Assembly: GCF_000014265.1 (NCBI RefSeq)
Contig: NC_008312.1
Span: forward strand, 1,290,001-1,322,000
DNA length: 32,000 nucleotides
From: Trichodesmium erythraeum IMS101
Lineage (GTDB): Bacteria > Cyanobacteriota > Cyanobacteriia > Cyanobacteriales > Microcoleaceae
Reading direction: 5' to 3'
Numbering within the stretch: the first letter of the stretch is position 1; each line of letters starts with the position of its first letter. Under the pieces are notes generated by a model, which was not told where the DNA came from, made no database searches, and saw only the letters and a program-made list of their open reading frames with translations. This document shows positions 7,259 to 22,364 of this stretch, in pieces. The position numbers and the translations under genes are program-made.

Positions 7259-8650
7259 TTATTGAAACTCTCGTTTAATTGATTTTGCCCATAATAAAAA
7301 CGGTATTACACCACCTCCTAATAATGCTGCTAATGTGAATAAAAAAATGATGATTCTAGTCAGAGGAGGTAGGGAGCGCGACACCCAAGGAAATACATAA
7401 GGCTCTAATTCAGAATCTACTAAATTATTAGGCAACTTAAAACTAACTTGTACATTATGTAATGAGCCACGGTCAGCATTTATTGGTTGAATATAATTAA
7501 TTTGATACTCATCAAATAAAGCCTCTAAAAATTCGGTCAAACTGGTAGAAATATTTTCAGCATTTCCCGAAAATTCAGCAATACCATTAGTTACTCCTGC
7601 GATTTGTTGTAGTCGCCTTTGATCAACAAATTCTTCAGCAGCAACTTCTCTTAATTTCTCTGATCCATTACTTTTTTTTCTGCCTCTTTTACTAATATCT
7701 CTAATAGTTGGAGATTGCTTTAAATCATATTTTTGTTGCAACTGTTGGGGAGTCAAACCATAACCTAAAGTATGCACAGTAATATTAGGATAACTTTTTA
7801 ACATAAACATCATTTTTTCAAAATCTTGTGCTTCTAATTCTGGTTCATTTTCTCTATTTCCATAAATACTATGATAGCCATCAGAAAGTAAAATTATTGA
7901 ACGTCTTGGCTGAGGTAAATTAGAATTTATTGGTAAGTTAAAACGAGTATCTTCAGGATTACCAAAAAATTGTACTGCCTGACGCAAAGGTTCATAAATA
8001 TCTGTAGCTGCACAAAGATTATCTAGTTTACTCTCTAATTTATTGAGAGTCTGTTCGACCTTTTTTTTACCAGCTAAAACAAAATTATCTAGTTGTTTTT
8101 TCCTGACTTGATTTCCCGGACAATTTTTACCTCCTTTGCCAAAGGGCACGATGGAAATTCTGGTATTTTCTCCCTTTTTAGCTAAATCTTGATTGAACTT
8201 TCTAATAGCAGCGATCGCTCCTTCTAATTTAGTTTTTTCTCCACTACTATCCAATTGTTTCATACTGCCACTAAAATCTAATAAAACAATTACCCAAGCC
8301 GGAGGTAATTCTTTAGGTTGAGGAATTTTCAAATTAATATCTGCCTGGTTTAAAGTTTGACATTCTCCAGTTTTAGGGTCAGATTTTGGCGGACAAACTG
8401 TTAAGTTAAACTCATTTTTTTGCATACCTCTTATTGGTTTATTTTTTTGGTCGTAGACTTTAACCCGGAGGGTGACTTTTCCTTCATTTCTATCAGGAAT
8501 AGCCTCAATTATTTCCAGATTTTTGACTTTAGCAAAAACAGGATTAATGTAGCAAATTACTATTAATAAAGATAGACTAAGATCCCGGGCAAAAAAATAG
8601 ATTTTAGTAGACAAATATGAATAATTTTTTAGAATTAACATTTTCAGCAT
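7259..8650 (-). CDS. von Willebrand factor type A (vWA) domain protein with N-terminal signal-like segment and C-terminal TM anchor
   Basis: 463-aa ORF. MIDAS motif D-F-S-G-S (nt 8264-8278), with later CAATD and ILLSDG motifs. Signal-like LSLSLLIVICYINPVFA and a C-terminal hydrophobic LTRIIIFLFTLAALLGGGVIPFLLWA. The true start is uncertain because the first ~25 codons overlap a gene relic. Confidence 0.85.
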   Translation of the reverse strand: MLKMLILKNYSYLSTKIYFFARDLSLSLLIVICYINPVFAKVKNLEIIEAIPDRNEGKVTLRVKVYDQKNKPIRGMQKNEFNLTVCPPKSDPKTGECQTLNQADINLKIPQPKELPPAWVIVLLDFSGSMKQLDSSGEKTKLEGAIAAIRKFNQDLAKKGENTRISIVPFGKGGKNCPGNQVRKKQLDNFVLAGKKKVEQTLNKLESKLDNLCAATDIYEPLRQAVQFFGNPEDTRFNLPINSNLPQPRRSIILLSDGYHSIYGNRENEPELEAQDFEKMMFMLKSYPNITVHTLGYGLTPQQLQQKYDLKQSPTIRDISKRGRKKSNGSEKLREVAAEEFVDQRRLQQIAGVTNGIAEFSGNAENISTSLTEFLEALFDEYQINYIQPINADRGSLHNVQVSFKLPNNLVDSELEPYVFPWVSRSLPPLTRIIIFLFTLAALLGGGVIPFLLWAKSIKREFQ

Positions 8651-13102: not shown

Positions 13103-15283
13103 TTATCCACAACGTTGAGGTCGTGTTTGTAAATTAATTTCTAACAAGTCTGCAAGATCGCACTTTAATTTATCTGCCGTTTTCTTATTCGGTTCTATGT
13201 AGCCAAAACCATCACTAAAAAATTTTTTTTGATAGGAATAAATTGCTCCTATCCACTGCTTTTTCACCACTAAATATTTATCTTCTTCCCCGATAACATC
13301 ATCTTTATAGCCTGCGATATACTGAATTTTTACATCATTTTCTAGAATCTCATGAATAGCTTTAATAATTTCTAAACGCGCATCTTCTGTTGTCAATAAC
13401 GTCGAATTTTGATTTAATAATTCTACCTCTAACTCCCGAACAATTTTTTGAATTTCTCTCCTCGTAGTGGAAAACTTTTCTAGTGCTTTTTCCATTTTTT
13501 CCGTCGAAAGTTCACTCACAGTATTTTTTTCTACATCAGTTAATATTTCTTCTGAGGAAAGGGGATATTCTTGAGTTTTCCTTTCAACAATATTTCCACT
13601 ATTAAGCTTACCTACCTGATATCCTAAAATAAAAAACAAACCATGAGAAAACATAATCAGAAAAGTTGCTGCTACTGACCGTCTATATTTTCTAATTAAT
13701 ATAGTAATATGGTCAGAAAAATCTAATTCCCTTTCAACAGTTAACCCAAAAATAATTGTTTGATAAAAATATTTGAGTTTCGGAAACGCGGCGGTAAAAA
13801 TTTCTTTTGGTACTTTTCCATTGCTAATTTGGTGAAAATAAGCTGCTAACTCATAATCAGATAGTTGATAAAATAAATCGGCAAAAGGTTGATAATAATT
13901 GGAGGTTTTCTGAGAGGTTTTCTGATAGGAGGAGGAAGTTTTATCCCAACGATTTTTTAGAAAATCAATTAACTTTTTCCAAGTAGCATTTCCATACACT
14001 AATTCATCTTTTTGTTGACCAGGATTTTTGTGTAATAGACTATTTTCTAAAGATTTTAAATCCTGGCGAACTTGTTGTTTAATTATGCTCGAATGTGCTG
14101 ACCATAAACTGTCTTGATTTTTTAAAAGACAACAGTAGTCAGTAACAGATATTTTTTTTCCTAAGATTTGAGATAAGACATGATTTGCTCCTAAGATGAT
14201 TAATGGTTCTAATAATTTTTTATAATTTCTCAGTTGTAATTGTAATTGTCTGGAAATTTTTTGCTTTTCATTTTCTTTCTTTCTATGCCTACTAATATTT
14301 AACCAATTTAGATATTCTGGTAAACTCTCAGGAATAAAAATTGCCCTTAAAGTTAATAACCTAATCATCTGAGCATTAGCATTTCCTTGTTTTATCCCAT
14401 TAGTCGCTCCCAGGTTATCAAATAAATTGTTTAAATATTCTGATGTAATTTGACCATTCTGTAATTTTAAAACTAAATTTTCTATCCATTCTTGCTTGAT
14501 TTTAGAGCCACTAATTAATCCTTTAATTGCTGTTTCTATAGCAGCTTCATCTATATATCTTGAGGTATTACTAGAAGAATTTTTAATCATTTTTGTCTGT
14601 ATTTTTGTCAGGTTTGCTGCTACTTCTGCATTGGCTGGATGAATAATTATAAATTGTTCTGGTCGCTCAACAGCTTCAAGATTATAAATCCATGATATGG
14701 GGAGATCATTGGCTTTTAATTCAGCCATTTTATTCAGAATTTGTAAGTCAGATAATTTAGTAGAAATTATGACTGGGAAAGTTGTAGTGTTCAGCCAATT
14801 TTGCCAATTTTTAGGTAAATTTATTTCTGGTTTTTTTGTGACTTGATGTTTGTTTGGTTTTCCAATCTGTTTAGTTTCAGATGGATTAAATATTGGATTA
14901 ATTCCCTGTTGCTGCTGAATATTTATCCAATCTAATATTTGCCAAATATTATCTTTTCCAGTACATAAAAAATAACGATAAAAAGAAGTAGAACGACTAT
15001 ATTCATCTTGCCCAGATGTCACTACCGCAACTACTGAATAATCTGGTTCTTTATCGTTCATACTTAACACAACTCGCCCAACAAAAGTAGGTTCTTGACT
15101 ATGGCGATCTTTGCCGACTTCAAATCCTTTATTGGCAATTGCTCTTGCTAGAGAATAGGGAATTTTTGGCAAGGTTAAATTCATATATTCTCCTACTTTA
15201 AATCCCCGGGAAATCCATTGACCGTTGGGTAATATTTCGGGAATTATGCCTGTGCTAAACTCGTGAATTTCAATATTTTTCAT
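13103..15283 (-). CDS. 726-aa partner of the paired NTPases: N-terminal alpha/beta region, long helical middle, one TM segment, C-terminal coiled-coil region (possible GAP1-like GTPase-associated protein)
   Basis: Long uninterrupted ORF in the same orientation as the two NTPase genes and downstream of them. Hydrophobic VAATFLIMFSHGLFFILGY lies at about nt 13612-13677. Heptad-like charged stretches follow (EKALEKFSTTRREIQKIVRELEVELL). The GAP1 assignment is an inference and was not verified. Confidence 0.8.
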   Translation of the reverse strand: MKNIEIHEFSTGIIPEILPNGQWISRGFKVGEYMNLTLPKIPYSLARAIANKGFEVGKDRHSQEPTFVGRVVLSMNDKEPDYSVVAVVTSGQDEYSRSTSFYRYFLCTGKDNIWQILDWINIQQQQGINPIFNPSETKQIGKPNKHQVTKKPEINLPKNWQNWLNTTTFPVIISTKLSDLQILNKMAELKANDLPISWIYNLEAVERPEQFIIIHPANAEVAANLTKIQTKMIKNSSSNTSRYIDEAAIETAIKGLISGSKIKQEWIENLVLKLQNGQITSEYLNNLFDNLGATNGIKQGNANAQMIRLLTLRAIFIPESLPEYLNWLNISRHRKKENEKQKISRQLQLQLRNYKKLLEPLIILGANHVLSQILGKKISVTDYCCLLKNQDSLWSAHSSIIKQQVRQDLKSLENSLLHKNPGQQKDELVYGNATWKKLIDFLKNRWDKTSSSYQKTSQKTSNYYQPFADLFYQLSDYELAAYFHQISNGKVPKEIFTAAFPKLKYFYQTIIFGLTVERELDFSDHITILIRKYRRSVAATFLIMFSHGLFFILGYQVGKLNSGNIVERKTQEYPLSSEEILTDVEKNTVSELSTEKMEKALEKFSTTRREIQKIVRELEVELLNQNSTLLTTEDARLEIIKAIHEILENDVKIQYIAGYKDDVIGEEDKYLVVKKQWIGAIYSYQKKFFSDGFGYIEPNKKTADKLKCDLADLLEINLQTRPQRCG

Positions 15284-15630: not shown

Positions 15631-16536
15631 TTAATCTTGCTCTAAATGTAAATTACGCTTACCTGTACAAATCCAATATATAGGAGAAACTAAACCAAAA
15701 GGTCGCCATTTTTTTGAGTCTCCTAATACAGATGCTACCCCGCTACGATCGCGATAAATTTCTTCAGAATTTGGTTGAAAATATTTATTTTGATTTCTTG
15801 TTGCGCCAAAAGCAGAAGTTGTAAAATATTCCACATTTCCCATTCCTAAATCTTGCCAAGATTCTAATCTTTTAAAAATAGTAGGAAATCTGGCTTTTAA
15901 CAAAAATTTTGGTTTGTGTCTATTTCCCCATAAATCTGCTAATTCACACTTAGTTAATACTAGAGCAATTCGCCGTTTTTGACTGAAAATATTTCCCCCT
16001 GCTAATGCTACTAAAAGTTGATCAACTCCTCTGGCATATTCTAAGTCTTTACGATGAGTTGTACCATCAATCATTAACATAATTCCTGTGGCGGGAAAAC
16101 AATCATTTAAGTAGTCTCGGAGTAGCTGACTATTTGTTTCTTGAAGTACATCGCTGAAAAATTCTCCAGAATAATCTTTGCAACTAATATCTAAGTTTAA
16201 AACGGTGTTTGAAAATTTGGAATTATCTGTTTTTTTCAGAACAATTCTTAAACTATAATCCTTAATTTCTAGCACGTCACTAGCTAAACGAGTTGGTTCA
16301 ATTTGTAATCCTTTTTCTATCAAGTCTTGTGCCTGTCTAATTAAAGATTCTCCGTCTTTATTTGCTGGAGTAACTAACTCGACTGGACTCGATATATCGG
16401 CATTTGGCCACCTAGCTAAAGCAGCCATATAAGTCGTTTTTCCCGCGGCGCGATCGCCTATTACCCGTAAAACTCCAGAATGATTTTCGACTTTTAATTC
16501 TTGATTATTTCTGGGTTTAAATATAGATTTAAACAT
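15631..16536 (-). CDS. Divergent Ras-like (TRAFAC-type) P-loop NTPase, paralogue B
   Basis: 301-aa ORF. Walker A GDRAAGKT (nt 16435-16458), IEPT, D-Y-S-G-E, T-K-C-E where NKxD is expected, S-A-F-G, and a C-terminal W-R-P-F-G-x3-P-I-Y-W motif. Confidence 0.85.
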   Translation of the reverse strand: MFKSIFKPRNNQELKVENHSGVLRVIGDRAAGKTTYMAALARWPNADISSPVELVTPANKDGESLIRQAQDLIEKGLQIEPTRLASDVLEIKDYSLRIVLKKTDNSKFSNTVLNLDISCKDYSGEFFSDVLQETNSQLLRDYLNDCFPATGIMLMIDGTTHRKDLEYARGVDQLLVALAGGNIFSQKRRIALVLTKCELADLWGNRHKPKFLLKARFPTIFKRLESWQDLGMGNVEYFTTSAFGATRNQNKYFQPNSEEIYRDRSGVASVLGDSKKWRPFGLVSPIYWICTGKRNLHLEQD

Positions 16537-16594: not shown

Positions 16595-17410
16595 TTAACT
16601 TTTCATATACTGACCTTTACTTAACCAGTATAAAGGAGGAATAATTCCATAAGGTTTCCATTTCAAAGGTTCCCGTAAAATTGAGTGAGAACTGCCTAAT
16701 TCATCTGTACGATTTGGACGGGGGTCATTTCGATGTAAAACACCAAAGGTAGATATAGCATAAAACTGTAAATTTTGCTGAGGAATACGCTTTTTTAAAA
16801 TATTTGTTGTTCTGGGTAAATGAACTTTAAATATATCTAATTCTGGGTCAAGACGACCAGGCCATATTTCTCCTCTTTCACATTTACTCATTGCTATGGC
16901 TAGACGTAAATCTTGAGTACGATCTTTTTCATCTATTAAGTTAATAAATTTTTCTATTACGTTACTATAAAATATGTCGTTTCCTGGTTCCCATTTATGG
17001 AGTAAAATTAGACAGCCAAGGTTATCTTTTATCATACATTCATCGAAAAATTCTTGATGTAAAGTGTTAGACATTCCACTTTGTAATTCATTAAAAATTT
17101 CCCCTGGGTAATCTCGGACTACTAGGTTGATTTCTTCTGGTTTTCTTTGCCACCAATGTTTGATTTCTATATGAAAAGAATACAAGGGTAAATCGTAAAA
17201 ACTTTGAATTTTAATTCCGTCGATAATGGTTGGTTCTAAAGAGGCTCCATTTAAAATAATATTCTCCGCTTTAGTAGCTAAATTTTTAGCATCATTAGTA
17301 ATAGCTGTAATTTGAAAGTTAGGATTAGTTTTTTCCGGCCAATAAGCTAATCCTGCTAGATAAGTTGTTTTGCCTGCACCAGTAGGTCCAATAATACAAA
17401 TATTCCCCAT
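16595..17410 (-). CDS. Divergent Ras-like (TRAFAC-type) P-loop NTPase, paralogue A
   Basis: 271-aa ORF. Walker A GPTGAGKT (nt 17366-17389), LEPT, D-Y-P-G-E, S-K-C-E where NKxD is expected, S-T-F-G, and a C-terminal W-K-P-Y-G-x3-P-L-Y-W motif. Lies 58 bp upstream of paralogue B. Confidence 0.85.
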   Translation of the reverse strand: MGNICIIGPTGAGKTTYLAGLAYWPEKTNPNFQITAITNDAKNLATKAENIILNGASLEPTIIDGIKIQSFYDLPLYSFHIEIKHWWQRKPEEINLVVRDYPGEIFNELQSGMSNTLHQEFFDECMIKDNLGCLILLHKWEPGNDIFYSNVIEKFINLIDEKDRTQDLRLAIAMSKCERGEIWPGRLDPELDIFKVHLPRTTNILKKRIPQQNLQFYAISTFGVLHRNDPRPNRTDELGSSHSILREPLKWKPYGIIPPLYWLSKGQYMKS

Positions 17411-18365
17411 TTTTGTTTGGTTAAATCTCTAAGTTTTTAGGTATTTAAACTATACAGTGCTACAGCGCTATGGTCCTACTTTTCTAATGGTAGATAGGAA
17501 CACGCAATGCTTAGTGTGGGAGCAAAATGCTCTGAAATAATTAGAATGGACGGGACAACTATTGTTATCTACCACTATCTATAGTAATTCCCACGGTTAT
17601 AATTTGCCTCGAGATTTTGATAATTTTGATTGACCAGAGAACCAGGGATATGGTTTCTTTGGGGGCTGCTTAATTCTAGTGCTAAATGAGTTTTTCTGAG
17701 GGAGCGATCGCTTCTATAAACTTCTCCCATTTCAGTTATCAGTTATCAGAGATTATTTTTCAATTTTGGTGGTTTTGGCATCATAAATATGTATGAACTG
17801 GTTTACTCAAAAAATGATACTTTTGTCGGGAGGTTCTACCTAACATTTATCTTTTGTGAGTCTGAGTCTTTTCTGTTGTCTAATTTGTCTTAATTATTAT
17901 TAGCAGAATTAGCTATTTTTTCAAGGGCTGGCATCAGATTCTGTTATCTGAATATATCTATTTGATTTTTCAATTATTCGACTTTTTTTCTGGTAATTAC
18001 AAGGTTTTTATGGTCTTTATTAATTCCCTCAGATTCTGTTTTCTGACTATATCTATTAATAACAATTTAATTGACTTAGGTTACACTACTGTCTATTAGC
18101 TGCAAATTTAAAATAATTTCCTCAAACTACTGAGGGTGTCAAAGTTTTGATTTTTTTAAATCTGATTTTTGAATTTTCAATTTTTCGATTTTTTAACTTT
18201 TTTTCTGGTAATTTATAGGCAATAAATGTCAAATAATTTCCTCAAACTAATGAGGGTATCAAAGTTCTTGATTTTGATTTTTGATTTTTGGTTAGCTATG
18301 TATTTCATGTCTGACTAAGTGCAGTTAACCTAATAATATGTTATACATATTTTATTCCTTATTCC

Positions 18366-21300
18366 TTGATTAAGTCAATGCTGTTTAACCCCTTTCTCCG
18401 TAAATTGCGTTTTTTGCTGCTGTTGTTGTTGGTGCTGTTGGTGGTAAATTTGGGGCATGTTCGAGCTTCTGAGGAGTCACCGCCGGCAGACTGGCAACTC
18501 CAGGGAATATTGGCGGCGTTGGATGATCCTGATCCTGATGTTTGGGTTAAAGCTTTGAAGAAAATGTCTGAGTATGACCTTAAACCTGTTGAAATTTCAT
18601 CAGAGCGGGTTGAACAAATTGGAAAATTGCTGAGTCATGAAAATTGGCATGTCCGTTCTGCAGCAGCAAGGGCAGTGGGTGAGATGGGGGCGGAGGCTAA
18701 AGTTTTGATTCCCCAGTTGCTGCAGTTGTTCAGGGATGAAAATTCGGGTGTCCGTTCTGCAGCAGCAAGGGCAGTGGGTGAGATGGGGGCGGAGGCTAAA
18801 GTTTTGATTCCCCAGTTGCTGCAGTTGTTCAGGGATGAAAATTCGTATGTCCGTGAAGCAGCAGTAAGGGCAGTGGGTGAGATGGGGGCGGAGGCTAAAG
18901 TTTTGATTCCCCAGTTGCTGCAGTTGTTCAGGGATGAAAGTTCGGGTGTCCGTTCTGCAGCAGCAAGGGCAGTGGGTGAGATGGGGGCGGAGGCTAAAGT
19001 TTTGATTCCCCAGTTGCTGCAGTTGTTCAGGGATGAAGATTCGTATGTCCGTTCTGCAGCAGCAAGGGCAGTGGGTGAGATGGGGGCGGAGGCTAAAGTT
19101 TTGATTCCCCAGTTGCTGCAGTTGTTCAGGGATGAAAGTTCGGGTGTCCGTTCTGCAGCAGCAAGGGCAGTGGGTGAGATGGGGGCGGAGGCTAAAGTTT
19201 TGATTCCCCAGTTGCTGCAGTTGTTCAGGGATGAAAGTTCGTATGTCCGTTCTGCAGCAGCAAGGGCAGTGGGTGAGATGGGGGCGGAGGCTAAAGTTTT
19301 GATTCCCCAGTTGCTGCAGTTGTTCAGGGATGAAAATTCGTATGTCCGTGAAGCAGCAGTAAGGGCAGTGGGTGAGATGGGGGCGGAGGCTAAAGATTTG
19401 ATTCCCCAGTTGCTGCAGTTGTTCAGGGATGAAAATTGGTATGTCCGTTCTGCAGCAGTAAGGGCAGTGGGTGAGATGGGGGCGGAGGCTAAAGATTTGA
19501 TTCCCCAGTTGCAGCAGTTGTTCAGGGATGAAAATCCGTATGTCCGTGAAGCAGCAGCAAGGGCAGTGGGTGAGATGGGGGCGGAGGCTAAAGTTTTGAT
19601 TCCCCAGTTGCAGCAGTTGTTCAGGGATGAAAATTCGGGTGTCCGTTCTGCAGCAGCAAGGGCAGTGGGTGAGATGGGGGCGGAGGCTAAAGTTTTGATT
19701 CCCCAGTTGCAGCAGTTGTTCAGGGATGAAAATTCGGGTGTCCGTTCTGCAGCAGCAAGGGCAGTGGGTGAGATGGGGGCGGAGGCTAAAGTTTTGATTC
19801 CCCAGTTGCTGCAGTTGTTCAGGGATGAAAGTTCGTATGTCCGTGAAGCAGCAGCAACGGCAGTGGGTGAGATGGGGGCGGAGGCTAAAGATTTGATTCC
19901 CCAGTTGCAGCAGTTGTTGATGGATGAAAATTCGGATGTTCGTGAAAAAGCAGCACGGGCAGTGGGTAAGATAGGAAAATTAAATACTCAGCAGATTTTA
20001 CCAATTTTAAACGCAGCTCATAGAAACCGAGATAAAGAAGCAACACTTCGTTTTCTCGCCTACTTTGTCAGTGGTGGAGAATATGATGCCCTTACCCTAA
20101 CTAAATGGTTAGGTTCACCAGAACAATATCCTTATCAAATAGATAAATTTAAGAATGAACGCCCCATTAGCCACGAAGAAGGCAAAAAAGTCTTAGAGCT
20201 TTTTGCAGAAATTTGGAAACCAAGTCAGTCCTTAGAATACTTACCTTTTGAATTGGAACGACAAATTAACATAGTAGTCGAAAAAGTAGATTGGCAACCA
20301 GAAGATCTGCCCCTACTCAAGAAACACTACAACAACCTCAAAGACGAAGACATCAACGCCAAAATAGTCGCCTTACAAGGAATACAATGGTTCTCCTACC
20401 TCTGGAAATTTCTACTCCTTCACGCCTTGACTTGGCTCATCCTCCTCTGCCTCTATGCCAAATCTCCCGAAATTCAAACCCTATTCTGGCATCCCCAGAT
20501 TCGCAAAATTGCCGGACTCGGTTACATCGGTTTATTACTCACCTGGATACCATCCCTCCGCCGCCTACTCTTTTCCCCCTTCCAACCCATTCTCATCGCA
20601 GACGCTGACCTCGACAGTTTCAACCCCCAAGATTACTTTTCCGACTCCAACGTTTGTCTCCAAAATACCCACAACCTACAACCCATCAAAACCACCATTG
20701 CCAAAATCCAATCTCCCATTGTCCTCCAAGGAGAATCAGGTCTCGGCAAATCAATGTTCCTGCGGCACTGGGCGAAAACCCGCAAAAATCTAGTAGTTTA
20801 CTTACCCGCCAGCAAATGTGCCCAAGGAGCGATCGCCGCCATCCAAAGCAAAATACCCATATCTCAAACAGACCCCAAATTCCTCAAAAGGCTGATTTAC
20901 AATAACGCCCTCGAAATTTGTATTGACGGTCTCAACGAAGTCACCCCCGACACCCGCACAAAAATTAGTTATTTTGTCGAGAGTCACTTCCGGGGTCATA
21001 TACTCCTAGCAACACAACCCCTATATTGGATCCCACCCTCAACAACCAAAACCTATGTTCTCCAACCATTGAAGCGTGAGCAAATTCGACAGTTTCTCCA
21101 GACTCGTCAATTTAACCCATCGGCAGAACCTTCAATTTCCCGGTCTGAATATGAAGAAGCTTGCGAAGAATACCTCGGAAAAACCTTCAATTCACAGAAG
21201 CAGTCAGAAGAAGAGCAGAAAACAGTACGTCGGTTACTATCAAACCCCATGGACTTAACTATTGTAGCCCAAATTCTTGCCCAGGGGAAAACCCCGGACT

Positions 21301-22364
21301 TGCTCAACCTGCAACAACAGCAGTATAAAGTCATGGCAGCAGAATACAAAGAGGTTAATTTTGATTCTTTTCCACTAACAGAGTTTGCCGAAACAACATA
21401 TCAGATGCGTCTCAACGATGAAATCAATATTCCGTCGGAGTGGAAAAAAGAACTCCAGACCATGGAAAAATACAAAATGGTTTTGCGCCGTCAAAAGTAT
21501 GTGGAAAATGACGTCGGTTCTCAATGGTATTTCCGCCATGATAAAATTCAAGAATATTTTATCGTCCAGACATTTATCGGTGAGGAAAATCAAAAATTAG
21601 AGGAACATATTGACGATCCCAGGTTTCGAGGAGTTTATCTATTATTAGCAACCCTCCTACCCTACCTAGAAGCCTGGTCACTGCGAGAGAAATTATTACA
21701 AAATGCAGCCGAAACCAAAGACCATGTTGTTAGCGACCAATTTATTCAACGCTTAAATTCTCGGTCGGAATTATCCAAAAATGGTGAGAATGTATACTTA
21801 AAGGAGTTAATAGAAGTTATGAAATTGCTTATTGCTGAGAAAAATAATAATATAAATAAGGAGTTGACAGAATTGACGAAATTGTTTATTACTGAGAAAA
21901 ATAATAATATAAATATTGAAGTTAACCCTAATATTGAAGCAAACCCTAATACGAGGAATAATTCAATGACAGATAATTCTGAATCAAAATATAACTTTAG
22001 CCAAGCCAGAGTTGGTAACGTAGTCGAAACAAATAATGGCAGTATGGGTAATGTAGTCGAGAAAGCCGAAAGTGGCAGTCAAGTTGTAGGAACTCAAAAT
22101 AACTATGGTTCCCAAGAAAAGCAAACCCTCGCCGAAGCCGCCGCCGAAATTCAAAAATTATTGAAACAATTAGAATTAAATAACCCCGCCGCGACAGACG
22201 CAGAAAAAGAAGCATTTGTCACCGCCTCCATTCCCCCAAACAACCGCCAACGTTTTGTCGGAGCATTGCAAGCATTAGGCAAAGAAGCCCTCAAAGAACT
22301 ATTAGATAACCCTTATATTAATGTGGGAGTAGCCACTGTTGAAGGGTGGCAAAACCCTAAATAA
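18366..22364 (+). CDS. NLR-like protein: signal/anchor segment, HEAT (PBS-lyase-type) repeat array, two hydrophobic segments, NACHT-type STAND NTPase, low-complexity region and conserved helical tail
   Basis: 1332-aa ORF with a TTG start at 18366 (alternative ATG at 18378). Has 13-14 33-aa HEAT-like repeats and hydrophobic segments at 20388-20459 and 20508-20558. Walker A GESGLGKS (20730-20753), Walker B LEICIDGLNEV, ILLATQP and the NACHT-typical NPMDLTIVAQIL are present. The tail reads QTLAEAAAEIQKLLKQLE...NPYINVGVATVEGWQNPK. Confidence 0.85.
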   Translation: MIKSMLFNPFLRKLRFLLLLLLVLLVVNLGHVRASEESPPADWQLQGILAALDDPDPDVWVKALKKMSEYDLKPVEISSERVEQIGKLLSHENWHVRSAAARAVGEMGAEAKVLIPQLLQLFRDENSGVRSAAARAVGEMGAEAKVLIPQLLQLFRDENSYVREAAVRAVGEMGAEAKVLIPQLLQLFRDESSGVRSAAARAVGEMGAEAKVLIPQLLQLFRDEDSYVRSAAARAVGEMGAEAKVLIPQLLQLFRDESSGVRSAAARAVGEMGAEAKVLIPQLLQLFRDESSYVRSAAARAVGEMGAEAKVLIPQLLQLFRDENSYVREAAVRAVGEMGAEAKDLIPQLLQLFRDENWYVRSAAVRAVGEMGAEAKDLIPQLQQLFRDENPYVREAAARAVGEMGAEAKVLIPQLQQLFRDENSGVRSAAARAVGEMGAEAKVLIPQLQQLFRDENSGVRSAAARAVGEMGAEAKVLIPQLLQLFRDESSYVREAAATAVGEMGAEAKDLIPQLQQLLMDENSDVREKAARAVGKIGKLNTQQILPILNAAHRNRDKEATLRFLAYFVSGGEYDALTLTKWLGSPEQYPYQIDKFKNERPISHEEGKKVLELFAEIWKPSQSLEYLPFELERQINIVVEKVDWQPEDLPLLKKHYNNLKDEDINAKIVALQGIQWFSYLWKFLLLHALTWLILLCLYAKSPEIQTLFWHPQIRKIAGLGYIGLLLTWIPSLRRLLFSPFQPILIADADLDSFNPQDYFSDSNVCLQNTHNLQPIKTTIAKIQSPIVLQGESGLGKSMFLRHWAKTRKNLVVYLPASKCAQGAIAAIQSKIPISQTDPKFLKRLIYNNALEICIDGLNEVTPDTRTKISYFVESHFRGHILLATQPLYWIPPSTTKTYVLQPLKREQIRQFLQTRQFNPSAEPSISRSEYEEACEEYLGKTFNSQKQSEEEQKTVRRLLSNPMDLTIVAQILAQGKTPDLLNLQQQQYKVMAAEYKEVNFDSFPLTEFAETTYQMRLNDEINIPSEWKKELQTMEKYKMVLRRQKYVENDVGSQWYFRHDKIQEYFIVQTFIGEENQKLEEHIDDPRFRGVYLLLATLLPYLEAWSLREKLLQNAAETKDHVVSDQFIQRLNSRSELSKNGENVYLKELIEVMKLLIAEKNNNINKELTELTKLFITEKNNNINIEVNPNIEANPNTRNNSMTDNSESKYNFSQARVGNVVETNNGSMGNVVEKAESGSQVVGTQNNYGSQEKQTLAEAAAEIQKLLKQLELNNPAATDAEKEAFVTASIPPNNRQRFVGALQALGKEALKELLDNPYINVGVATVEGWQNPK
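18639..20024 (+). repeat. In-frame tandem array: 13 near-identical 99-bp units (18639-19925) plus one degenerate unit
   Basis: The unit GAAAAT(TCG/TGG/CCG)...CGT(TCT/GAA)GCAGCAG(C/T)AAGGGCAGTGGGTGAGATGGGGGCGGAGGCTAAAG(T/A)TTTGATTCCCCAGTTGC(T/A)GCAGTTGTTCAGGGAT repeats with a 99-bp period. It encodes E(N/S/D)(S/W/P)(G/Y/H)VR(S/E)AA(A/V)RAVGEMGAEAK(V/D)LIPQL(L/Q)QLFRD. Confidence 0.95.

Follow-up and report, generated by a model that had tools for sequence, protein, structure and literature searches.

In a window of 32,000 nucleotides from Trichodesmium erythraeum IMS101 (contig NC_008312.1, positions 1,290,001 to 1,322,000 of the forward strand; coordinates below count from the first nucleotide of this window), a single open reading frame (ORF) on the plus strand, 18366-22364 with the stop codon included, encodes a protein of 1332 residues that we read as a putative NLR facing the periplasm. 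The ORF begins with TTG, and an in-frame ATG at 18378 (codon 5), which is the start in the closest homologues P0001 and P0003, is by this comparison the probable true start. From the N- to the C-terminus the protein comprises a signal-peptide-like N-terminus, 13 HEAT units, two hydrophobic segments, a P-loop NTPase and a small C-terminal helical domain. Homologue alignments and structure prediction together show the domain order as a predicted signal peptide, a HEAT solenoid, a conserved membrane module, a NACHT module and a C-terminal helical domain. Kyte-Doolittle 19-mers pick out three hydrophobic stretches, i.e. residues 14-32 (2.42), 679-697 (1.84) and 718-736 (1.23).

A first-pass annotation, made from the letters of the DNA, had already placed the repeat domain ahead of the NTPase, and this order is borne out (HEAT units at residues 90-518, Walker A at 789-796, NTPase from ~762). 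Likewise, the hydrophobic segments that it had marked at 20388-20459 and 20508-20558 agree exactly in the hydropathy analysis with residues 675-698 (WFSYLWKFLLLHALTWLILLCLYA, segment 1) and 715-731 (IAGLGYIGLLLTWIPSL, segment 2), respectively. The features of the gene are as follows:

18366..22364, plus strand: whole ORF, 1332 aa
18366..18467, plus strand: residues 1-34, predicted signal peptide of the Sec type; 76 of 91 full-length homologues have it as well
18468..18632, plus strand: residues 35-89, which cap the mature domain N-terminally and contain the family motif DWQLQGILAALDD
18633..19919, plus strand: 13 HEAT units of 33 aa, residues 90-518; predicted periplasmic sensor solenoid
19920..20345, plus strand: last, degenerate HEAT unit and conserved pre-membrane region, residues 519-660
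20346..20459, plus strand: continuous helix 661-697 ending in hydrophobic segment 1; predicted sole membrane span
20460..20507, plus strand: positive, aromatic loop KSPEIQTLFWHPQIRK, with KFPQVQAIFFWNPWVRR as the consensus across the family; predicted at the cytoplasmic face
20508..20558, plus strand: hydrophobic segment 2, residues 715-731; predicted interfacial or re-entrant
20649..21908, plus strand: NACHT-type STAND module, residues ~762-1181 (nucleotide-binding domain, helical domain 1, winged helix, helical domain 2)
21891..22133, plus strand: disordered low-complexity N/G/Q-rich linker, residues 1176-1256
22128..22361, plus strand: C-terminal five-helix domain, residues 1255-1332 (LAEAAAEIQKLLKQLE...EGWQNPK)

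The N-domain and the membrane module

The N-terminus of the window protein, MIKSMLFNPFLRKLRF-LLLLLLVLLVV-NLGHVRA-SEE, is its most hydrophobic stretch (19-mer value 2.42). It comprises an n-region with a charge of +4 (K3, R12, K13, R15), an h-region with 12 Leu/Val residues and a c-region, NLGHVRA, in which Val at -3, Ala at -1 and the Ser that comes next agree with the small-residue criterion. A hydrophobic N-terminal segment is found in 76 of 91 full-length homologues (those that start with Met and possess a long N-terminal region), followed in most of them by an AXA-type site (VSA in 30, VNA in 24 and SHA in 8, as compared to VRA in the window protein), and the conserved AXA motifs have Pro at -5. 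The n-regions of the homologues carry a mean net charge of +3.3 versus about +0.7 beyond the h-region. The 15 exceptions begin within the signal peptide or within a HEAT unit and, judging from their sequences, look like mis-called starts. The same pattern recurs in divergent representatives and is followed family-wide by a W(Q/R)(I/L)xG..AAL.D motif. Tat and lipoprotein signals were rejected, as neither a twin-arginine motif nor a lipobox is consistent among the homologues. The segment previously described as signal-like thus emerges from the homologue survey as a predicted classical Sec-type signal peptide.

In a paralogous branch (e.g. Moorena P0143), all 17 representatives share an invariant pair of cysteines, the first located 1-3 residues past the cleavage site and the second ~25 residues further on, with few or no other cysteines in the N-domain. 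Family-wide, the N-domain contains 0.23 Cys per 100 aa versus 0.98 in NACHT. Such a distribution is the sequence pattern of an exported, disulfide-bonded domain. The strongest sequence argument for export of the N-domain is provided by relatives in which other domains occupy the position of the HEAT array. In these representatives the alignment starts shortly ahead of segment 1 and covers NACHT to its end; they came to light in a domain scan covering 73 representatives of ~1087 clusters. P0222 carries two STN domains that also match GspD_N0 and FecR_C, whereas P0200 has PDZ plus GspD_N0 and P0234 has GspD_N0, each between signal peptide and segment 1. In P0170 (Candidatus Parabeggiatoa), the place is taken by Peripla_BP_6/ANF_receptor, and P0202 and P0266 give YncE-like beta-propeller matches that are weak and below Pfam thresholds. 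STN, FecR_C and secretin N0 domains are periplasmic. As a separate observation, residues ~440-560 of P0170 (Candidatus Parabeggiatoa sp. HSG14, MDM8559013.1), between the periplasmic binding protein (PBP) domain and the membrane module, contain a stretch …VIYTGVEIKEISGVNFNNLTYMLDFYLWFRFQD… that is reminiscent of the extracellular ligand-binding domain of pentameric ligand-gated channels; it has no Pfam match at E<0.01.

The HEAT array itself is matched by Pfam HEAT with E=1.4e-100 over 14 stretches, and at the DNA level it appears as a 99-bp tandem repeat of 13.5 copies with 94% matches (18637-19972). The units are near-identical. Eleven of the 33 positions vary (4, 5, 6, 9, 12, 13, 24 and 30 as well as 1, 2 and 33), those at 1, 2 and 33 being single changes in the end units, and positions 4, 5, 6, 9, 12, 24 and 30 vary in more than one unit. 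Pairwise comparison of codons among the 13 units yields 303 nonsynonymous and 0 synonymous differences, which correspond to ~17 independent nucleotide changes. High internal repeat identity, with a period of 33 or 35, is a family-wide property, the between-unit ratio of nonsynonymous to synonymous differences (pN/pS) being 0.5-2.75. In this respect the array resembles the diversifying repeats of fungal NLRs, which also show high internal conservation. The region that follows, residues 519-660, bears the motifs RFLAYFVSGG, WLGSP and W.P.DL.LL..HY.NLK; it is conserved in the cyanobacterial branch and absent from the STN, N0 and PBP variants.

Base composition sets the array apart, with 52% G+C and a GC skew of +0.37 (G over C) at 19001-20000 versus a window average of ~30-38% G+C. 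This bias probably results from 13-fold amplification of an Ala/Gly/Arg/Glu-rich unit, and a foreign origin of the unit is possible. Identity with phycobilin lyases or NblB was considered and rejected on NCBIfam scores (NblB 114.9 bits versus a cut-off of 300, CpcE 93.9 versus 330, CpcF 42.5 versus 220); the label 'PBS lyase' is, by these scores, a repeat-level artefact.

The membrane module connects the N-domain to the NTPase. Segment 1 has its core at residues 679-698 and a best 19-mer insertion energy of ~+2.7 kcal/mol, whereas the 17 residues of segment 2 are weakly hydrophobic, with a best 19-mer of ~+6.6 kcal/mol, i.e. poor insertion; both energies are approximate, the Hessa scale having been applied without position weighting. 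In the AlphaFold model, residues 661-697 form one continuous helix of 37 residues (predicted local distance difference test, pLDDT, ~90), while residues 699-743 are broken into four short helices (701-708, 710-716, 720-727 and 729-743), the interruptions of segment 2 falling at its invariant or nearly invariant Gly and Pro residues. Averaged over 100 homologues, the 16-residue loop between the segments contains 3.0 K/R versus 0.16 D/E, the 15 residues ahead of segment 1 are neutral (2.07 versus 2.06), and R-R/K follows segment 2 (RRK in the window protein). As the loop is strongly positive, the positive-inside rule predicts it to be cytoplasmic and the HEAT array therefore to be outside, which agrees with the signal peptide. 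An exported N-domain in combination with a nucleotide-dependent, cytoplasmic NACHT requires an odd number of spans. For this reason, segment 1 is predicted to span the membrane, and the loop together with segment 2 to form an interfacial or re-entrant element at the cytoplasmic side.

Within this module, H686, W690, Y697, Q704, W708, R713, G717, Y720, L725 and W727 are invariant in 100 close homologues, and P698, G719, P729 and R732 are 98-99% conserved, the window protein carrying Ala at 698. The consensus H..fW..Li..YP.s..vQa.fFWNpwvR.i.GlgYvg.lLtwvPfLR.rLf.PF is kept in 133 divergent representatives, whatever their ectodomain. H686, W690 and Y697 would lie on one face of the helix (i, i+4, i+11). 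The conservation of these residues points to a role in signalling or assembly beyond anchoring. A receptor-like topology, which the first-pass annotation had put forward conditionally (HEAT array outside, NACHT inside, one central span), is thus supported by the signal peptide, the loop charge, segment 2, the Cys pair and the domain swaps, and an exported N-domain with a single span appears likely from sequences and models.

The NTPase, the C-terminal region and known systems

Walker A of the NTPase reads GESGLGKS (residues 789-796; 20730-20753), in which G, S, G, G and K do not vary among 100 homologues, and Walker B reads ICIDGLNE (residues 851-858; 20916-20939), where D-G-L-N-E is likewise invariant. 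The latter fits the hhhhD[GAS]hDE signature as Kibby et al. define it, its first acidic position being occupied by Asn, as in DGYNE of NLRC4. These motifs are followed by a sensor-1 region, LLATQP (21003-21020), and by a winged-helix motif, FRHDKIQEYF (residues 1056-1065; 21531-21560; F, R, H, K, I and F invariant), which we take to correspond to the NLR consensus winged-helix His motif F-x-H-x-x-x-Q-E-F. A PDB search with the single sequence gave no significant match; with a family profile of 14 sequences, the best PDB match was the NACHT of NLRC4, albeit weak (E=0.077), in an alignment running from Walker A through the DG-x-NE Walker B to sensor 1. An AlphaFold2 model of residues 640-1332 based on 100 homologues reached a pLDDT of 72 and a predicted template modelling score (pTM) of 0.62, with the NTPase module mostly at 80-95. 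When this model was compared to the PDB with Foldseek, ranks 1-10 were all taken by NACHT NLRs (NLRC4, NOD2, NLRP3 and NAIP; E 1.3e-9 to 1.1e-6 over 400-540 aligned columns), with NLRC4 4kxf at 1.3e-9, NOD2 at 6e-9 and NLRP3 at 8e-8; CED-4 (1.6e-5), ORC and clamp-loader AAA+ proteins and Avs4 (2.7e-4) ranked lower.

The Pfam model for NACHT, PF05729, scores 16.1 bits with the whole protein (residues 784-861) and 18.7 bits (E=0.0017) with the isolated region, as compared to a gathering cut-off of 26.7. Hence, the original NACHT call stands by fold and motifs and is weaker by sequence than it had implied, while the concern that the P-loop might fall outside the STAND class is dispelled by the NACHT-like fold and the invariant motifs. 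By fold and motifs the predicted NTPase is a divergent NACHT-clade STAND member, and the window protein is outside the characterised bNACHT and Avs defence families.

In-frame tandem repeats of 57 bp (x2) and 18 bp (x2.2) occupy 21801-21951, before the linker and into its start, and encode KELTELTKLFITEKNNNIN x2 and NIEANP repeats; this stretch may be length-variable. The C-terminal domain of ~80 aa is modelled as five helices (LAEAAAEIQKLLKQLE...GW..P; pLDDT 83). It matches no Pfam family among 34 members scanned and no PDB fold at E<1, shows no similarity to an EAD11-bearing relative and has no second copy in the window. This tail (22071-22361 when the end of the linker is counted in) is fused only in the Trichodesmium/Okeania/Dapis/Moorena/Symploca branch, and the Nostocales orthologues end directly after NACHT. 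It is also contained in 54 small stand-alone cyanobacterial proteins (P0268-P0321; ~55-160 aa, a few of them partial), most of which have a G/N/Q-rich N-terminal stretch like the linker of the window protein. A function as homotypic adaptor or as amyloid-like signalling module is conceivable for it. Some relatives carry EADs, which are adaptor domains of conflict systems of multicellular bacteria (PMC7159879): EAD11 in P0208 and P0230, EAD2 in P0253 and EAD8 in P0154. In P0154, EAD8 sits C-terminal of the nucleotide-binding domain, and no EAD8 partner gene adjoins. One of 48 representatives gave a TIR_2 match. Since the sensor is N-terminal and the EAD adaptors of relatives are C-terminal, the architecture is, as far as sequence tells, inverted at both ends. 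For most members, the only candidate outputs are partner proteins or the membrane module itself.

Bacterial NACHT proteins (bNACHT) act as anti-phage sensors with the usual order effector-NACHT-sensor, as described by Kibby et al. (bioRxiv 10.1101/2022.07.19.500537). Like the window protein, they possess a STAND module of the NACHT clade that has a winged helix and whose Walker B is of the D[GAS]hDE type; they are likewise coupled to superstructure-forming repeats (HEAT is among the sensor types listed) and enriched in cyanobacteria and multicellular bacteria. However, they place the sensor at the C-terminus and the effector at the N-terminus and are cytosolic or have transmembrane regions after or inside NACHT, whereas the window protein has an N-terminal sensor, a signal peptide and a dedicated membrane module before NACHT, with adaptors at the C-terminus in relatives. 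Table S1 of that study, in the form available, lists HEAT before NACHT in no bacterial case and in one eukaryote, and the accessions of four named homologues were found neither in the papers searched nor in the available supplements; both are weak evidence. The earlier statement that bacterial NLRs are typically cytosolic is right, with the reservation that the literature does mention, in a general way, bacterial NACHT/STAND proteins associated with membranes. Among these are the 'Transmembrane STAND ATPases' (bioRxiv 10.1101/2025.11.14.688446), membrane-associated STAND sensors from actinobacteria and cyanobacteria in a defence context; they are named in passing, protease-fused and part of Pepco modules, whereas the window protein has neither protease nor Pepco.

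Animal NLRs (NLRC4, NAIP, NOD2 and NLRP3) are the best structural matches, and NLRC4 shares the DG-x-NE Walker B; however, they are cytosolic, ordered effector-NACHT-LRR and only 10-14% identical to the window protein. The same receptor logic of ectodomain, one transmembrane segment and cytoplasmic NACHT is met in a eukaryotic Ig-ectodomain NACHT protein, which has no shown homology in the membrane module and probably arose independently. FecR-type anti-sigma factors, in which periplasmic FecR_C contacts STN, also combine an extracytoplasmic binding domain with a single span and a signalling module in the cytoplasm, and the STN/FecR_C-like and secretin-N0 domains outside in relatives recall FecR-type receptors. 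Toll-like receptors (TLRs), whose ectodomain is a repeat solenoid as well, and plant receptor kinases are functional analogues. Unlike in such bitopic envelope receptors, the cytoplasmic module would here be a NACHT NTPase that oligomerises by analogy with NLRs, rather than an anti-sigma, TIR or kinase module. Finally, phycobilin lyase/NblB proteins share the HEAT_PBS repeat motif, but are small and cytosolic and lack signal peptide, membrane module and NTPase.

Family, neighbourhood and proposed function

A search with residues 600-1332 retrieved 859 proteins, nearly all cyanobacterial, with identities of 76-93% in Trichodesmium/Okeania, 53% in Moorena and ~50% in Nostocales; their annotations read 'HEAT repeat domain-containing', 'PBS lyase' or 'NACHT domain-containing'. 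Among 1.84 billion cluster representatives, a profile built on the membrane module and NACHT detected 1087 clusters (at 50% identity) with E<1e-3, 581 of them with E<1e-30. In reference genomes, 316 loci encode relatives, the best one (96%) being in a Trichodesmium metagenome-assembled genome (MAG), and several genomes have two paralogues. Members reside mostly in filamentous cyanobacteria; those outside include Candidatus Parabeggiatoa and a Haliangiales MAG, which likewise belong to multicellular or filamentous groups. A literature search found no description of any family member, and exact-protein look-ups for the window protein, P0032 and P0005 returned no match. As no neighbour is conserved across 79 loci, the gene looks like a single-gene unit.

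On the left flank of the gene, two adjacent small P-loop proteins (15631-16536 and 16595-17410, both minus strand) match Pfam DO-GTPase1/DO-GTPase2, known from double-GTPase conflict systems (Kaur et al. 2020). The pair is divergent to the NACHT gene, with a 955-bp spacer between them. This adjacency is confined to Trichodesmium; MAG_R02 has its DO-GTPase across the lipid-kinase gene, on the opposite side. Directly downstream of the pair, a 726-aa ORF (13103-15283, minus strand) without significant Pfam match could, by position, be a GAP1-like third component of the DO-GTPase system. Further left are a vWA-domain protein (7259-8650, minus strand), a MACPF/perforin-domain protein (4564-5925, plus strand; E=4e-15) and a 717-aa ORF without Pfam match (1960-4113). 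The left flank with DO-GTPases, 726-aa ORF, vWA and MACPF looks like a conflict or defence island, whereas the right flank consists of housekeeping genes. There, the convergent downstream gene (22665-23981, minus strand) encodes a DAGK/YegS-type lipid kinase with a fused MGS-like domain and is syntenic in Trichodesmium MAG_R02 and Dapis. The upstream spacer (17411-18365) is AT-rich with several direct repeats, including a 52-nt pair (18104-18155/18224-18275; 85% identical) with an internal CCTCA...TGAGGG inverted core. Rfam has no match in the window, this spacer included.

The explanation we favour, with a rough probability of 0.6, is that of a periplasm-facing transmembrane NLR with an immune or conflict role; the latter role taken by itself, which draws on analogy, has about even odds. 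The Sec signal peptide would be cleaved and the HEAT array would reside in the periplasm or possibly in the thylakoid lumen. Segment 1 would cross the membrane once, the aromatic, positive loop and the Gly/Pro-rich segment 2 would lie at the cytoplasmic face or dip into it, and NACHT would be cytoplasmic. By analogy with NLRs, binding of a ligand to the variable surface of the HEAT array may be signalled via the continuous helix 661-697 to NACHT, which would exchange its nucleotide and then oligomerise. Output may come from the C-terminal side, that is from the five-helix domain here and from EAD2, EAD8 or EAD11 adaptors in some relatives, or alternatively from clustering of the membrane helices themselves. 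In multicellular bacteria, the protein would most likely serve to monitor the cell envelope for signs of danger or non-self.

Several observations weigh against this explanation, and some of them favour other topologies. The first 15 mature residues carry ~2.8 K/R, which is unfavourable for Sec export in E. coli, AlphaFold takes no account of membranes, and a two-span hairpin is compatible with the sequence alone, given that segment 2 is strongly hydrophobic in some divergent members (Kyte-Doolittle 17-mer up to 2.7). That segment 2 is clearly hydrophobic in many divergent members would also suit a membrane-tethered, cytosol-sensing NLR in which all three segments span, the first as an uncleaved reverse anchor with the N-terminus outside, leaving both HEAT array and NACHT in the cytoplasm. 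With an even number of central spans the ATPase would stay inside, and the cyanobacterial HEAT-repeat proteins CpcE and NblB are indeed cytoplasmic. However, an n-region charge of +3.3 versus ~+0.7 after the h-region breaks the positive-inside rule for an N-out anchor, and the strongly positive loop would face outside. The conserved AXA motifs with Pro at -5, the invariant Cys pair just past the cleavage site and the STN, FecR_C, GspD-N0 and PBP domains at the HEAT position of relatives likewise speak for export, making this arrangement very unlikely. A simple count of hydrophobic segments would instead combine the signal peptide with two true spans and place NACHT in the periplasm or thylakoid lumen as a nucleotide-independent scaffold; in fact, a periplasmic location has been published for one bacterial NACHT on the basis of topology prediction (PMC10907252), and a sea-cucumber NLR is claimed to have its NACHT outside the cell (PMC13133943). 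Yet the invariant Walker A, Walker B and winged-helix His imply nucleotide binding and hydrolysis, for which there is no ATP outside the cytoplasm, RRK follows segment 2, the Cys content of NACHT is four times that of the N-domain, and relatives carry EADs at the C-terminal side and in one case a TIR_2 match, both domain types being active in the cytoplasm, so that we find an outside NACHT hardly credible.

Other counterarguments concern the role of the protein. Orthologues are ~50% identical across cyanobacterial orders, including Nostocales/Oscillatoriales, with 1-2 copies per genome, a pattern more suggestive of a conserved function in the cell than of a gene in a typical arms race. When neighbouring genes at the 79 loci were clustered, none emerged as a conserved partner, and the largest cluster, present in 15 loci, is transposase-like. 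PADLOC matches the protein only with HEAT-repeat models (HEAT_CxxC_PD-DEXK and HEAT-ARM_XIII) and with no NACHT/Avs model; run on it together with the two neighbouring small P-loop proteins, it returned nothing beyond HEAT-repeat and weak mad3/mad8 matches. Pfam NACHT stays below threshold in divergent relatives as well (16-21 bits). The window protein has no recognisable effector, its tail being without Pfam or PDB match, and none is present in the Nostocales orthologues. Much of this evidence, i.e. sequence identity and copy number, the lack of effector and conserved neighbour and the PADLOC matches limited to HEAT repeats, together with the extreme conservation of membrane module and NACHT, would fit a housekeeping ATPase for envelope or cell-cell signalling that has the same topology and uses the HEAT array as a scaffold or as a sensor of endogenous envelope signals. 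Against such a function stand the hypervariable repeat units with nonsynonymous differences only, although gene conversion among the repeats confounds the nonsynonymous/synonymous argument and any formal selection test. Moreover, the place of the N-domain is taken by HEAT, STN, N0, PBP or beta-propeller types in different members, some relatives carry EAD2, EAD8 or EAD11 at the C-terminal side or match TIR, domains that are hallmarks of conflict systems (PMC7159879), and the taxonomic bias is towards multicellular bacteria; on balance, we consider the housekeeping function unlikely. A bolder version of the favoured transmembrane NLR, which we regard as unlikely, is that the family constitutes widespread periplasm-facing immune receptors for phage, toxins or molecules from neighbours with a resistosome-like pore: NACHT oligomers would bundle the invariant His/Trp/Tyr transmembrane helices and the re-entrant loops, thereby killing or isolating the infected cell of a filament. 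Such an output, if real, would account for how most members can do without an effector domain of their own.

In animals, plants and bacteria alike, NLR/STAND sensors are assigned to the intracellular branch of innate immunity, sensing at the surface being attributed to other chassis such as TLRs and receptor kinases. If the periplasm-facing transmembrane NLR proposed here is correct, thousands of 'PBS lyase' and 'HEAT repeat protein' annotations would be corrected, and tractable orthologues, e.g. in Nostoc, would be at hand for studying how an outside ligand signals to a STAND ATPase inside. A large bacterial family would then have a NACHT switch wired to interchangeable periplasmic sensors through a dedicated, almost invariant membrane module, and the NLR chassis could serve as a transmembrane, surface-type receptor in bacteria.

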